Shown here in pieces: positions 2,831 through 61,800 of a stretch of 61,891 nt of DNA. Each line of letters starts with the position of its first letter. The stretch's first letter is position 1. This DNA is from a virus (taxonomy: Duplodnaviria; Caudoviricetes). The notes below the pieces were generated by a model. It was not told where the DNA came from and searched no databases. It saw nothing but the letters and a program-made list of their open reading frames with translations. The position numbers and the translations under genes are program-made. The stretch is from IMG/VR virus record IMGVR_UViG_3300044800_000230, positions 1-61,891 of that record. One strand, 5' to 3'.

Positions 2831-4617
2831 AAAACCCATTGGTTACCTTGGGTCGGTATCTTAAACGGTCACTTCAGGACAATTACGGACCTGAAGCCGA
2901 TTACTGGTATTACCCTGTTTTCAAAGATACTCAGGCAGGGGTTCCTGTTGAGGAAACAAATGCCCTGACCTGTTCCGATGTCTTTAAATGTGTGAGGGTC
3001 ATCTCCGAGACTGCCTCGTCAATCCCCCTTATCCTCTATCGCTGGCTTGATGGGGGTGGAAAGGAGAGGGCTGAAGATCATTACCTCTCCAACATCCTGA
3101 AGATCGAACCCAATCCATTGATGACTTCGATGCAATATCGGGAGGTTATTTTTAACCATCTTCTAACATGGGGAAACCACTATTCTCAGATTATTCATAA
3201 TGGTTTTGGGCGGGTTGATTCTCTTTGGCCTCTTCGACCCGACAGGATGGAGGTCAAACAAGATCCTGGCACGGCATATGGTCTTATTTACCGATACCGC
3301 CCAAGTATGGGTGGAACGATTGATATTCCCATGGATGAAGTTCTTCATTTCGCAGGTCTTGGTTTCAATGGCATCATTGGATATTCACCGATTGCCCTTC
3401 ACAGGGAATCAATAGCCCTCTCCATGGCGGCTGCAGAGTTTGCCTCTCGCTTCTTTGGTAATGATGCAACCCCAGGTGGAATTCTTGAACATCCAGGAAA
3501 GTTGGGTCCTGTAGCCCATGAGAATCTTAAAAAAGCACTCATAGCAGAACATTCGGGGGGAAAGAATAGATGGAAACCCATGATCCTTGAAGAAGGGATG
3601 AAATGGAATACCATCACAGTCCCGATGAAGGATGCCCAATTCATTGACATTCGAAAATATCAACGGACCGATATCTGTGGAATCTACCGTGTCCCACCCC
3701 ATCTGATTGGAGACCTTGATCGTGCAACCTTCACGAATATTGAACACGAGTCGATGAGTTTCGTGACAAATACGATCCGTCCGTGGTGTGTGAGATTCGA
3801 ACAGACATTGAATAAGAAACTACTTGGCCCCATTGAGAAGAACAGATATTTCTTTGAACATCTTCTTGAAGGTCTCATGAGAGGAGATGTTGAGACCAGA
3901 TATAAAGCCTATGCCATAGGGAGGAACTGGGGTTGGCTTTGCGCCGACGATATCCGTGAGATCGAGAATATGAACCCACTTCCCAAGGGACAGGGAAAGA
4001 TTTACTTAGTTCCGCTGAATATGATACCCGCCGATCAAGTTGGTCAGGCTCCAGCCAAACCGATTCCGGCAAAAGACCAGGGAGTCATCGATGTCCAACC
4101 CGTCGACCAGAAATTACTCCCACAGAAAAAGAGCGACGAGCAGGAAGCCTTCGAGATAAGAAATCGCCTAATGCTCTCTTTCAGGAGACTTTTTGAGGAC
4201 GGGACAGCTCGTATTGTGCGTCGTGAAGTGATTGGTATAAAAAAGGCTCTGAATCGTCCAGATTATGACAGCTTTTATCGGGATATAGATGACTTTTATA
4301 AAGAATTGCCTCTCTTTATCATGAATACAATGAGTCCAATTGTTTCAAGTTTTAATGAATTGTCGAATGAGAGTGATGGTGCTGAGATTCTGAACCGTTT
4401 CATCATTGACCATATCAAGGAATCTCGGTCAGACATTCAGACGTGGGAAGGGTCACTGATCCAGAAAGAAAGATTTGAGAAGAATGACAAGGCTATTGAA
4501 ACCAAATTGAATGGATGGGTAGGTGAACGACCGGTAAAAGAAGTAGAAGGTTTCTATAGATACAACAACGGAATATTAAACTCGGATAAAGTTAGATATA
4601 CAGAAGCATCAACATGA
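2827..4617 (+). CDS. Portal protein (HK97 family) with long C-terminal extension
   Basis: GNHY, LWPLRPDRM, EVLHF, GYSPI, ICGIYRVPPHLIG, IREIENMNP motifs; ATG overlaps the terL stop. Confidence 0.93.
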   Translation: MKNPLVTLGRYLKRSLQDNYGPEADYWYYPVFKDTQAGVPVEETNALTCSDVFKCVRVISETASSIPLILYRWLDGGGKERAEDHYLSNILKIEPNPLMTSMQYREVIFNHLLTWGNHYSQIIHNGFGRVDSLWPLRPDRMEVKQDPGTAYGLIYRYRPSMGGTIDIPMDEVLHFAGLGFNGIIGYSPIALHRESIALSMAAAEFASRFFGNDATPGGILEHPGKLGPVAHENLKKALIAEHSGGKNRWKPMILEEGMKWNTITVPMKDAQFIDIRKYQRTDICGIYRVPPHLIGDLDRATFTNIEHESMSFVTNTIRPWCVRFEQTLNKKLLGPIEKNRYFFEHLLEGLMRGDVETRYKAYAIGRNWGWLCADDIREIENMNPLPKGQGKIYLVPLNMIPADQVGQAPAKPIPAKDQGVIDVQPVDQKLLPQKKSDEQEAFEIRNRLMLSFRRLFEDGTARIVRREVIGIKKALNRPDYDSFYRDIDDFYKELPLFIMNTMSPIVSSFNELSNESDGAEILNRFIIDHIKESRSDIQTWEGSLIQKERFEKNDKAIETKLNGWVGERPVKEVEGFYRYNNGILNSDKVRYTEAST

Positions 4618-56813: not shown

Positions 56814-57225
56814 CCAATCATGACAAAGGGTTTGTCTTTGAATATCGCGATAAATTTAAGGGTGACAAGAAACTGCCGTGCCTCAAATGTTCTGATAGAA
56901 GGATATTGGCGTGTTCGAAGATAAAACTAAACGGGAAGATTGGGTGTGTGAAATTTAACAAATATGTCAGCCCGAGGGATGGGAGGAGGTGAGAAAATGG
57001 AAAAGACTAAAGTGCAAGAAGCAATTTTGGAATATCAAAAGAAGCTCATCGAGCATTCTAAGATTGAAAAGGAATCTTCTGAGATTACTAAATCCATTTC
57101 TTTGCCAGAAAAGCGAGTTGAGTTATCACTGGAAGAAGTAACGGAAGCAAGAAAGAAGATGATTTTGGCAATTCAGAAAGAATGTGGTTGTTAATCAATG
57201 CGGGATTCTAATGGGAGGAGGTGAA

Positions 57226-57290
57226 TTGGGTTACATTTTCTTCGATTTGATTATTTTAGATTCGGTTTCCTTAATTTAAATTCAATTCAC
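57226..57290 (+). repeat. TT-NNN pentamer array 1 (13 units), putative guide ncRNA
   Basis: TTGGG TTACA TTTTC TTCGA TTTGA TTATT TTAGA TTCGG TTTCC TTAAT TTAAA TTCAA TTCAC, then TAAAAGGAGG. Confidence 0.9.
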
Positions 57291-57305
57291 TAAAAGGAGG
57301 TTATT

Positions 57306-57569
57306 ATGCAAAGAGATTCAGAGAAATCAAGGAAAAGTTGGGAATTAGGGAATGAAATTATTGTTAAATATTTGGAGGGGAAAATTGAGGGGACCGATAA
57401 AATCAGGGTTGCCCAAACGGCCTGTAATATCCATGCCCGAATGGTGGCAAGCGAGGCCAACATGGAAACGAATAGGCTGGTATTGGGCAAGATGATTTAT
57501 TCGGATGAAAAAGAATTGAAAAAATATATTCAGAGTTCCATGCCCCAGATGATGATTGAGAAGAAGTGA
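57306..57569 (+). CDS. Hypothetical helical protein between arrays 1 and 2
   Basis: AAGGAGG RBS; 87 aa. Confidence 0.7.
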   Translation: MQRDSEKSRKSWELGNEIIVKYLEGKIEGTDKIRVAQTACNIHARMVASEANMETNRLVLGKMIYSDEKELKKYIQSSMPQMMIEKK

Positions 57570-57570
57570 G

Positions 57571-57670
57571 TTGTTTTGGGTTGGATTAGGTTGTTTTTTA
57601 TTATGTTGCTTTCCTTTGGATTACTTTTGTTTAGGTTACGTTCGATTTAATTTAATTGTATTCATTTTAA
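57571..57670 (+). repeat. TT-NNN pentamer array 2 (20 units), putative guide ncRNA
   Basis: TTGTT TTGGG TTGGA TTAGG TTGTT TTTTA TTATG TTGCT TTCCT TTGGA TTACT TTTGT TTAGG TTACG TTCGA TTTAA TTTAA TTGTA TTCAT TTTAA, then AAAGGAGG. Confidence 0.92.
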
Positions 57671-57684
57671 AAAGGAGGTCTATC

Positions 57685-58233
57685 ATGTATGAAATCGAAA
57701 GAGAATTAGAATCATTGTGTCCATATTTACAGAATAAACCGAAACAGAGGGAATTCATTCTTGATAAAGATGGAAAATGGGTAGAGAAACCAGAACCGAC
57801 CATCAAGAGAAATCGGGTTGATCCCGAAGAGGCTGGCTATCATGACGAAAAAGGATGGTATATCCCATCAAGGCAGATTTGGGCATCCATGAGAAATTCA
57901 TCTGGTCAGGTTCAACTTGGGAAGAGTAAATTAAACAGGCTTTCTAAGTTTTATATTGCTACGGTTCGGGTTGAACCAGCACAAATTTACATCCACAAGA
58001 AAAAACCCGATGCGATTTACAATGACCCCTGTTTTAAAGAAAGCAAAAAGGGTGGGGAAATGGTTTATAATCCTCGGCCTATGTTCAATTCTTGGAAGGC
58101 AAAAATCAAAATCGTTGTTTTGGAAGATTCGATTCCAGAAGAGAAGATTGAGGAATGTTTGATTTATGCCGGACTCTATAAGGGCATTGGATCAAGAGCA
58201 CCGGAATTTGGGAGGTTTAGGATTGTGAAATGA
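57685..58233 (+). CDS. RAMP/Cas7-like protein, copy 1 (182 aa)
   Basis: Beta1 ELESLCPYL, WYIPSRQIWASMR (cf. IPGSSxKGxxR of Cas7/Csm3), C-terminal G-rich loop GLYKGIGSRAPEFGRF. Confidence 0.7.
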   Translation: MYEIERELESLCPYLQNKPKQREFILDKDGKWVEKPEPTIKRNRVDPEEAGYHDEKGWYIPSRQIWASMRNSSGQVQLGKSKLNRLSKFYIATVRVEPAQIYIHKKKPDAIYNDPCFKESKKGGEMVYNPRPMFNSWKAKIKIVVLEDSIPEEKIEECLIYAGLYKGIGSRAPEFGRFRIVK

Positions 58234-58234
58234 C

Positions 58235-58319
58235 TTTGTTTGGATTTTATTATGTTGCTTTCCTTTGGATTACTTTTGTTTAGGTTACGTTCGATTTAAT
58301 TTAATTGTATTCATTTTAA
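58235..58319 (+). repeat. TT-NNN pentamer array 3 (17 units, chimera of arrays 4 and 2)
   Basis: TTTGT TTGGA, then the last 15 units of array 2 (TTTTA...TTTAA), all in register. Confidence 0.9.
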
Positions 58320-58333
58320 AAAGGAGGTCTATC

Positions 58334-58882
58334 ATGTATGAAATCGAAAGAGAATTAGAATCATTGTGTCCATATTTACAGAATAAACCGAAACAGAGGG
58401 AATTCATTCTTGATAAAGATGGAAAATGGGTAGAGAAACCAGAACCGACCATCAAGAGAAATCGGGTTGATCCCGAAGAGGCTGGCTATCATGACGAAAA
58501 AGGATGGTATATCCCATCAAGGCAGATTTGGGCATCCATGAGAAATTCATCTGGTCAGGTTCAACTTGGGAAGAGTAAATTAAACAGGCTTTCTAAGTTT
58601 TATATTGCTACGGTTCGGGTTGAACCAGCACAAATTTACATCCACAAGAAAAAACCCGATGCGATTTACAATGACCCCTGTTTTAAAGAAAGCAAAAAGG
58701 GTGGGGAAATGGTTTATAATCCTCGGCCTATGTTCAATTCTTGGAAGGCAAAAATCAAAATCGTTGTTTTGGAAGATTCGATTCCAGAAGAGAAGATTGA
58801 GGAATGTTTGATTTATGCCGGACTCTATAAGGGCATTGGATCAAGAGCACCGGAATTTGGGAGGTTTAGGATTGTGAAATGA
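58334..58882 (+). CDS. RAMP/Cas7-like protein, copy 2 (identical)
   Basis: Translation identical to copy 1. Confidence 0.7.
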   Translation: MYEIERELESLCPYLQNKPKQREFILDKDGKWVEKPEPTIKRNRVDPEEAGYHDEKGWYIPSRQIWASMRNSSGQVQLGKSKLNRLSKFYIATVRVEPAQIYIHKKKPDAIYNDPCFKESKKGGEMVYNPRPMFNSWKAKIKIVVLEDSIPEEKIEECLIYAGLYKGIGSRAPEFGRFRIVK

Positions 58883-58883
58883 C

Positions 58884-58933
58884 TTTGTTTGGATTTTATT
58901 TTTTTTGGTTGATTTTGATTATATTATTTTATT
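58884..58933 (+). repeat. TT-NNN pentamer array 4 (10 units)
   Basis: TTTGT TTGGA TTTTA TTTTT TTTGG TTGAT TTTGA TTATA TTATT TTATT. Confidence 0.8.
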
Positions 58934-59113
58934 AAGCTTGGGTTTGTCAAATATACAATCGCCAAATTAAGAATTTATTAGATTCTAAGCAAAAAGCATT
59001 TGAACTTGCAGAATCTGAATGGAAGGAATCAAGAATGAAAATGATTTCAGCGATAAATGAGGATGCGGAATTGTGTGGAAATGAATGAGGGATTATAATG
59101 GAAGGAGGTTATT

Positions 59114-59392
59114 ATGGAAAAAAGAATTTTTAAAGCTGGTAAAGGGAGTAGTTTTGATGATGAAAAGGCACAGGTTTATGGGGAATTTCTCTGGAAGATG
59201 AGGGAAGAAAATGGCGATGTTTTAACTCCACATCAGATTGTCGACAAGGCCAAACCCAAAAATTCCCCGATCCATGAATATTTTGAATGGGATGATGGGA
59301 TTGCCTCGGAGAAATATCGAATTTGGCAGGCTCGTTATCTCATCGGTCTGGTAAAGTTTTATCTCATTGACATTCCCCTTTCACCCAAATAA
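59114..59392 (+). CDS. Conserved phage protein (LTP...SPIH.YFEWDD..A.EKYR..QAR family), possibly C-terminally truncated
   Basis: Recognisable motif; GGAGG RBS; downstream of the RAMP genes. Confidence 0.6.
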   Translation: MEKRIFKAGKGSSFDDEKAQVYGEFLWKMREENGDVLTPHQIVDKAKPKNSPIHEYFEWDDGIASEKYRIWQARYLIGLVKFYLIDIPLSPK

Positions 59393-61648: not shown

Positions 61649-61683
61649 TTCGCTTCTATTCCCTTCTATTCCCTTCTATTCCC
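61649..61683 (+). repeat. Short tandem repeat (TTCTATTCCC)x3
   Basis: Read directly from the sequence. Confidence 0.8.
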
Positions 61684-61800
61684 ATCCACACCCTTCTTAT
61701 TTGCCTCATCTCGCCTTGACTTTACTTTCTGTTTAGTATAAGCATACATCATACACTAAACCTTAATTCTGTGGACATAGGATAGGGTTTCATATGTCTT

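Follow-up and report, generated by a model that had tools for sequence, protein, structure and literature searches.

The window analyzed here, 61,891 nucleotides of viral DNA (IMG/VR record IMGVR_UViG_3300044800_000230), is a single 61.9-kb contig that encodes small and large terminase subunits, a portal, a tape measure, a J-like tail fibre, an integrase and DNA methyltransferases, and it therefore represents a temperate siphovirus-like phage. At nt 57226–58933 it carries a locus in which tracts of TT-NNN pentamers (arrays A1 to A4) alternate with genes, every gene and tract lying on the + strand. A1, with 13 pentamers (nt 57226–57290), stops 1 nt before AAAAGGAGG, the ribosome-binding site of an 87-aa open reading frame (ORF; nt 57306–57569). 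A2, with 20 pentamers (nt 57571–57670), begins 2 nt past the stop codon of this gene and leads to the gene of a 182-aa protein, called vipr below (copy 1, nt 57685–58233). A3, with 17 pentamers (nt 58235–58319), is followed by a second vipr (nt 58334–58882) that exact sequence comparison finds identical to the first, and A4, with 10 pentamers (nt 58884–58933), has no ribosome-binding site after it. The arrays fill the intergenic gaps, and A1, A2 and A3 terminate at AAAGGAGG ahead of the next start codon. No nuclease gene is next to vipr.

The locus is very probably a system of the VIPR family with UU-based arrays, and it would form part of a distinct clade. Viral Interference Programmable Repeat (VIPR), as the text of the preprint has it, combines a phage minimal RAMP protein (Vipr) with vrRNAs in which 9–16 YNNGG repeats are followed by a 3′ tail; pairing to double-stranded DNA is through the NN dinucleotides and skips every third target base, and the systems, of which seven types are distinguished, silence competing phages and satellites (10.64898/2026.04.26.720920). 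In the cryo-electron microscopy work on the VIPR of phage SUSP1, according to the text of its preprint, one protomer is seated on each pentamer, the constant handle is held by protein and the variable bases form a gapped guide (10.64898/2026.04.26.720927).

Both strands of the window were scanned exactly for period-5 TT runs of at least 6 units, and six runs were found. Four of them, all on the + strand, are the tracts of 13, 20, 17 and 10 in-register pentamers that an earlier interpretation made from the letters alone (the sequence-only reading) had pointed out; the remaining two are a 7-unit run at nt 61649–61683 and a 6-unit run on the − strand. As that reading had claimed, TT is constant and positions 3–5 vary: in the three independent tracts, all 43 units have T at positions 1 and 2, and all four bases occur at positions 3–5, which is also the case in 304 units taken from the 5′ ends of 36 clade arrays. 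The pattern is likewise beyond chance. When the letters of each tract were shuffled 200,000 times, the observed run was matched in 0 shuffles for A1, 0 for A2 and 66 for A4, which is 70% T; when the window was shuffled within 100-nt blocks 200 times, the longest run was 7 units versus the 20 observed. The 7-unit run at nt 61649–61683 was rejected as a TT-NNN array, being a plain 10-nt tandem repeat (TTCCCTTCTA × 3.5, also scored with period 20) that occupies nt 61649–61697 just past a 274-aa ORF (phrog_20769), near the contig end.

While all four tracts are present, the 17-unit tract is not independent of the others. Nt 57596–58251 and 58245–58900 are the same letter for letter (656 bp), so that nt 57596–58900 form an exact tandem duplication with a period of 649. 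Its joint lies within the arrays at TTTTATT, which is common to A2 and A4, and A3 is therefore a chimera of the first three units of A4 and the last 14 units of A2. The duplication is real and not the assembler's invention, because in the Logan contigs of a sequencing run (X1) the flanks have a depth of ~42, the 656-nt repeat unit 99.9 (a k-mer depth ~2.4× that of the flanks) and a 53-nt contig spanning the joint 46; X1 is probably the source sample, and this support is therefore not independent. By unequal recombination within its arrays, a phage may gain new guides and a higher dosage of Vipr, the chimeric array illustrating one route by which new guides can arise. The second vipr copy and the conserved 87-aa partner gene also mean that the RAMP-like gene is not solitary, contrary to what had been proposed, and the proposed end of the locus at nt 59392 did not stand, since it takes in a 92-aa ORF (nt 59114–59392) with no evidence of belonging to the system.

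Vipr, its partner and their surroundings

The 182-aa ORF carries the IP...R motif and the C-terminal GIGSRAPEFGRF loop that had been noticed in it, and a C-terminal motif, G[IV]G..P..GRF, is kept in the family alignment. The protein has no Pfam family; in PHROGs it falls in phrog_4652, whose function is unassigned there, and a full-library search gave 337 representatives at E ≤ 0.001. The AlphaFold2 (AF2) model built from a 94-row alignment is confident (pLDDT 94.6, pTM 0.87). When the model was compared by VIA-align with 48,161 PDB chains, the top match was Csm3 (6ae2_B; Z 11.5, rmsd 2.7, 134 aligned), and rows 1–44 were all CRISPR-Cas effector or Cas6 entries; the matches listed by Foldseek at E ≤ 0.001 are CRISPR-Cas effector chains (Csm3, Cmr, Csf and Cas7-11). 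The suggested RAMP/Cas7 fold is borne out by this model, whose top PDB matches are nearly all Cas7, Csm3, Cmr4, Cas5 or Cas6 chains, and Vipr is a minimal RAMP with an RRM core, a thumb and a glycine-rich loop.

Vipr is also homologous to the Vipr protein of SUSP1. The family profile matched a single gene in SUSP1, AVU07_agp039 (E 4.5e-36), and the window and SUSP1 proteins are 28% identical in a pairwise comparison (E 3e-11). One GGT-NN array lies upstream of AVU07_agp039 and three lie downstream of its partner gene, in agreement with the layout given for SUSP1 in the text of the VIPR preprint (10.64898/2026.04.26.720920). The phage RAMPs with GGY-NN repeat RNAs that the sequence-only reading had mentioned do exist, as VIPR, in the text of the same preprint. 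A tblastn search against phage records matched 117 records, mostly Felixounavirus, and GGT-NN tracts of period 5 lie on both sides of the homologue in phage wV8. A single-protein scan of viral contigs gave no match, and the sole match in a scan of genome contigs was a 30%-identical gene in a Paceibacterota metagenome-assembled genome.

The partner gene is a candidate accessory ('vap'-like) gene of the clade. Of the 15 clade loci scanned, 12 have an ORF of 86–88 aa immediately before vipr, and the other 3 have less than 310 nt of upstream DNA. AF2 predicts the 87-aa protein to be all-helical (pLDDT 81); it has no Pfam family and no PDB fold match at E ≤ 0.001, and a look-up of the model in the Atlas returned only unnamed clusters (scores 0.81–0.83). 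It is unrelated to the 146-aa partner of SUSP1 (hhalign probability 0.2%), and the predicted complex of Vipr with it scored 0.06 against a mark of 0.32.

The setting of the cassette is that of a virus and not of a CRISPR locus. Along with the phage structural genes, the window holds no CRISPR array or CRISPR-like repeat; no PADLOC or CRISPR-Cas model matched Vipr, the 87-aa partner or the 92-aa ORF, the three proteins scanned, and no cas family was found among the scanned ORFs within ~2 kb on either side. The only Rfam match in the locus was a sub-threshold snoRNA inside a coding region, and no tRNAs were found. An imperfect direct repeat (nt 57120–57225 and 59010–59113) stands on either side of the cassette; its two copies share 71 of ~116 aligned bases, with a BLASTP match of 43% over 30 aa (E 2e-4). 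The 3′ end of a 76-aa gene and the downstream GGGATTCTAATGGGAGGAGGT reappear after A4 as a start-less ORF remnant and GGGATTATAATGGAAGGAGGT before the 92-aa gene, and the ribosome-binding site of the upstream copy (~57213–57221) has no gene behind it. The cassette looks to have been inserted at a gene boundary.

Fixed and variable letters across the homologues

The flanks of homologues are periodic as well, with TT-NNN tracts in the close clade and GG- or GT-based tracts in distant relatives. In a survey of 42 metagenome loci, with identities taken from the tblastn segment, 14 loci of 34–91% identity (L002–L014 and L040) have TT arrays beside the gene and on the gene strand, and 24 distant relatives, of 25–45% identity with several values over partial matches, have GG-, GT- or GC-based arrays; three loci (L018, L025 and L043) have no arrays, and L026 has one distant 7-unit TT run only. 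TT-NNN is linked with this protein throughout the clade. The fixed letters track the protein tree. In a tree of 28 rows, which leaves out the truncated row L021 and the near-copies L001, L010 and L047, the 11 TT rows form one branch with 100/99 support, and in a tree of 31 rows the window's TT clade is again one branch (100/99). A search with relatives that have R at the position of SUSP1 W178 led to a second TT lineage, L052–L054, three viral contigs that all have TT arrays and that make up a separate 100/99 clade in the 31-row tree. The two TT clades group weakly (65/48) with GT-NNN relatives there. L054 has seven TT arrays, the four upstream ones spaced by a repeated ~35-nt spacer in what is the canonical multi-guide layout.

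Within the TT clade, the constant and variable letters evolve very differently. A comparison of the window with L002 finds TT unchanged in 33/33 units, including 13/13 in the homologous 13-unit array; in the 5′ parts of the arrays NNN agrees at 23 of 75 positions, and vipr agrees at 136 of 183 third codon positions. The vipr genes of L009 and L010 are identical (537/537 nt), with upstream arrays of 13 versus 9 units whose NNN differ and downstream arrays that differ by whole-unit insertions. By these comparisons, NNN turns over much faster than silent sites and always in register. Such turnover is the behaviour of a guide and unlike that of an operator. The last 3–4 units are conserved (TT[TA]AA TT[TA]AA TTCA[CT] ..., mostly followed by AAAGGAGG), and in the last four units NNN is identical at 17 of 24 positions between the window and L002.

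The residues that hold the handle differ with the fixed letters. In the text describing the SUSP1 structure, G1 is contacted by H17 and D177, G2 by R138 and W178, and Y3 by E71, M72, R179, C173 and T175 (10.64898/2026.04.26.720927). In SUSP1 numbering, proteins beside GG arrays have H at position 17 (missing in three short rows), D at 177 and an aromatic residue at 178; those with GT-only arrays have A at 17 (H in L015), A or S at 177 and again an aromatic residue at 178; and those of the TT clade have N at 17, S or A at 177 and R at 178. The residues that contact G1 are lost in the GT-NNN relatives (A17, A/S177), and the TT clade is likewise without H17 and D177. In the family alignment as a whole, the D177 position is occupied by D, S, A, N or G and the W178 position by W, Y, F, R, H, G or N; since these residues are so diverse, more unreported handle motifs are likely.

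Some loci show further arrangements. L010 holds two VIPR systems 2.7 kb apart, one of TT type (148–1349) and one of GGY-NN type (3577–4543). In the latter, tracts of 33 and 19 GG-based units lie on the two sides of a 205-aa RAMP-like ORF (3821–4438) that hhalign matches to the family profile with a probability of 97.9% (E 4e-13). L047, a sister contig of L010 with an identical vipr (537/537 nt), has no GG arrays in the 18 kb examined, and together the two contigs suggest that the two handles are orthogonal. At L047:3189–3248, ~6.8 kb from vipr, a 12-unit TT run consists of few unit types (TTCAC, TTCTC, TTAAC ...) and could be a remote array or else a simple repeat. In L012 a GC-rich hairpin, GGCGGGGAGCAATCTCCGCC, follows the downstream TT array (1228–1340); it may be a terminator, which hints that some arrays are situated at transcript 3′ ends.

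Possible roles as guides, leaders and DNA-level features

By homology with SUSP1, the TT-NNN arrays probably function as guides. The arrays would be transcribed and processed, and each RNA pentamer would be bound by one Vipr protomer of a filament. Vipr would grip the constant UU where the published handle is G-G-pyrimidine, and the variable bases would pair, with gaps, to the DNA of a competing mobile element, which would then be silenced without being cut. We infer these steps, including the pairing bases, the targets and the repression, from the SUSP1 system. The mechanism put forward in the sequence-only reading, with one subunit for each pentamer, a constant handle and a gapped guide, matches the one resolved for SUSP1 and would carry over to the window by homology.

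Several findings weigh against a guide function of this kind. For 19 of 32 distinct clade arrays, a simple rule finds a Shine-Dalgarno-like motif with a start codon no more than 16 nt further on, and the arrays therefore lie in mRNA leaders and are not obviously separate small-RNA genes. Scans for + strand promoters and terminators around the arrays stayed near the shuffled expectation and gave none that was convincing. No structured 3′ tail is predicted (folding z-scores 0.69, 1.30 and −0.61); the texts of both SUSP1 preprints have the guides ending in a pseudoknot (10.64898/2026.04.26.720920; 10.64898/2026.04.26.720927). No RNA run with this stretch is among the public runs listed, the sole matching run being DNA. 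A target search with 37 distinct clade arrays covered both strands of 458 kb, made up of the window and the homologue loci and far too small for any verdict on targets; under the rules examined (NNN, xNN and NNx at target period 3, NNN at period 4 and NN at period 2) the best scores, with the exception of one period-4 case (L013 339–388, 23/30 versus 20 shuffled), were within 1 of the shuffled-guide maxima, and there were no self-targets. In the protein, D177, W178 and R179 of the SUSP1 G-loop are replaced by S, R and A in the window Vipr, and the SUSP1 handle contacts are therefore not simply transferable. R at the W178 position was considered as a marker of U specificity and rejected, since L052 and L054 combine W at that position with TT arrays. 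The arrays may be excised from the mRNA of the operon or exert an effect on it, and a cis-regulatory role could exist alongside the guide role.

As the marker at position 178 fails, the register stays between two options. UU could correspond to G1-G2, giving an 'NNNGG'-like unit that pairs via positions 4–5, or to G2-Y3, giving a 'YNNNG'-like unit that pairs via positions 3–4. The tree weakly favours G2-Y3, and the base composition of positions 3–5 brings no decision between the two.

Alternatively, the tracts might serve solely as cis-acting mRNA leaders. Vipr, or a host protein that binds U (ribosomal protein S1, for example), would then coat the periodic U-rich leader as far as the ribosome-binding site and tune the translation of the partner and vipr, in the way that TRAP binds to spaced triplets. 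The arrays that end at Shine-Dalgarno motifs and start codons fit this scheme, as do the extension of arrays all the way from a stop codon to the next ribosome-binding site and the lack of predicted separate promoters, terminators and folded tails. However, an operator should be conserved, and NNN is randomised between loci whose genes are 88–100% identical, with whole units gained or lost. Nor does a gene start follow A4 and some other arrays, and in L054, with its four tandem array units and repeated spacers, only the last touches a ribosome-binding site. A leader function that excludes guides is, on balance, quite improbable; as autoregulation, a leader role can be compatible with guides.

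It is more improbable still that the tracts act at the level of DNA, as bent or flexible DNA, promoter UP-like elements or recombination hotspots for the shuffling of cassettes. The duplication did recombine at a 7-nt identity within arrays, and an imperfect direct repeat brackets the cassette; yet the period is 5, where DNA bending has 10–11, the tracts occur on one strand only, always that of the gene, and they follow the RAMP family, in which other members keep the 5-nt period with another constant motif. That recombination took place in the arrays is better explained by their being repetitive. That the tracts are T-rich spacers of low complexity with a run arising by chance deserves hardly any credit: A4 alone is T-rich enough for shuffling to reach its run, but the 13- and 20-unit runs were never reached, and the register-perfect pattern is repeated in 14 independent metagenome loci.

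With guides as the preferred function, a more far-reaching combination can be proposed, in which the UU handle is a second, orthogonal code obtained by re-tooling the pocket from GGY to UU, the guide tracts double as leaders, and all three variable bases pair. That all of this applies together is rather unlikely. If it were true, two VIPR systems could coexist without cross-loading of guides (in L010 a UU and a GGY type lie 2.7 kb apart); filament assembly on the leaders of the partner and vipr would also set the amount of Vipr; and the code would be gap-free, with three bases read in five, versus the published two in five.

Comparison with known VIPR and CRISPR systems

The closest comparison is with the Type II VIPR of SUSP1, which consists of Vipr, vap1 and four vrRNAs. 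As far as the texts of the preprints describe it, both systems have a homologous phage minimal RAMP of ~180–195 aa, pentamer arrays that lie on both sides of the gene, on its strand, and have fixed and hypervariable parts, and a small partner gene with no nuclease adjacent. They differ in the unit, where UU is fixed with three variable bases in the window and GGY with two in SUSP1; in the partner, which is upstream of vipr and 87 aa long in the window, whereas that of SUSP1 has 146 aa and is unrelated; and in the arrays, which in the window abut ribosome-binding sites and have no predicted folded tail.

As in VIPR loci, tandem pentanucleotide repeats in which some positions are fixed and others hypervariable lie next to vipr in the window; the TT-NNN unit is neither GGY/NN nor one of the named G-containing repeats. 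All repeats named in the text of the preprint in which VIPR was first described in 2026 contain G, and its Methods ('VIPR type classification') name NNNGG, YNNNG and NNNNG as alternatives (10.64898/2026.04.26.720920). Two of these, NNNGG and YNNNG, resemble the window unit in having two fixed and three variable letters per pentamer; unlike them all, the window units fix no G. Of the four 2026 preprints from which VIPR is known, three are on VIPR itself; the fourth, a language-model survey that recovers VIPR arrays, reports, in its text, 21 clusters with non-canonical motifs, including GAC/NN, CAC/NN, WGT/NN and TGH/NN (10.64898/2026.10.21.760802). There too a Vipr-like fold stands beside period-5 arrays with fixed letters other than GGY, but three letters are fixed and two are free, and the text, as distinct from the full list in Fig. 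S10A, names no TT or UU. Nor is a TT or UU repeat named in the main texts of 10.64898/2026.04.26.720920 and 10.64898/2026.04.26.720927, and a search by term in the main text of 10.64898/2026.10.15.759431 gave no match; literature searches likewise turned up no VIPR repeat based on TT or UU. The suggestion that a TT-based code would be a different variant agrees with these texts.

With the Csm3, Cmr4 and Cas7 backbone of class 1 CRISPR-Cas systems, the window Vipr shares the fold of RRM core, thumb and glycine-rich loop. Characterised relatives of Vipr polymerise along the guide RNA with periodic base displacement, according to the text of the structural preprint (10.64898/2026.04.26.720927). 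Unlike class 1 systems, the window system has no CRISPR array, a period of 5 and not 6, and a single small phage-encoded protein, and the set that marks class 1, a CRISPR array with Cas10 or Cas8, Cas5, Cas11 and Cas6, was not found among the three proteins and the ORFs scanned ~2 kb to either side.

The UU clade would indicate that the handle pocket of a minimal RAMP can be re-specified, and it would provide, with the GGY type, a natural protein pair for decoding handle recognition and possibly an orthogonal protein–guide pair for running two programmable silencers in one cell. With it also comes the question of how a unit with three variable bases is read. Set beside SUSP1 and the other described types, the UU-based arrays leave the basic picture of VIPR unchanged and widen it.

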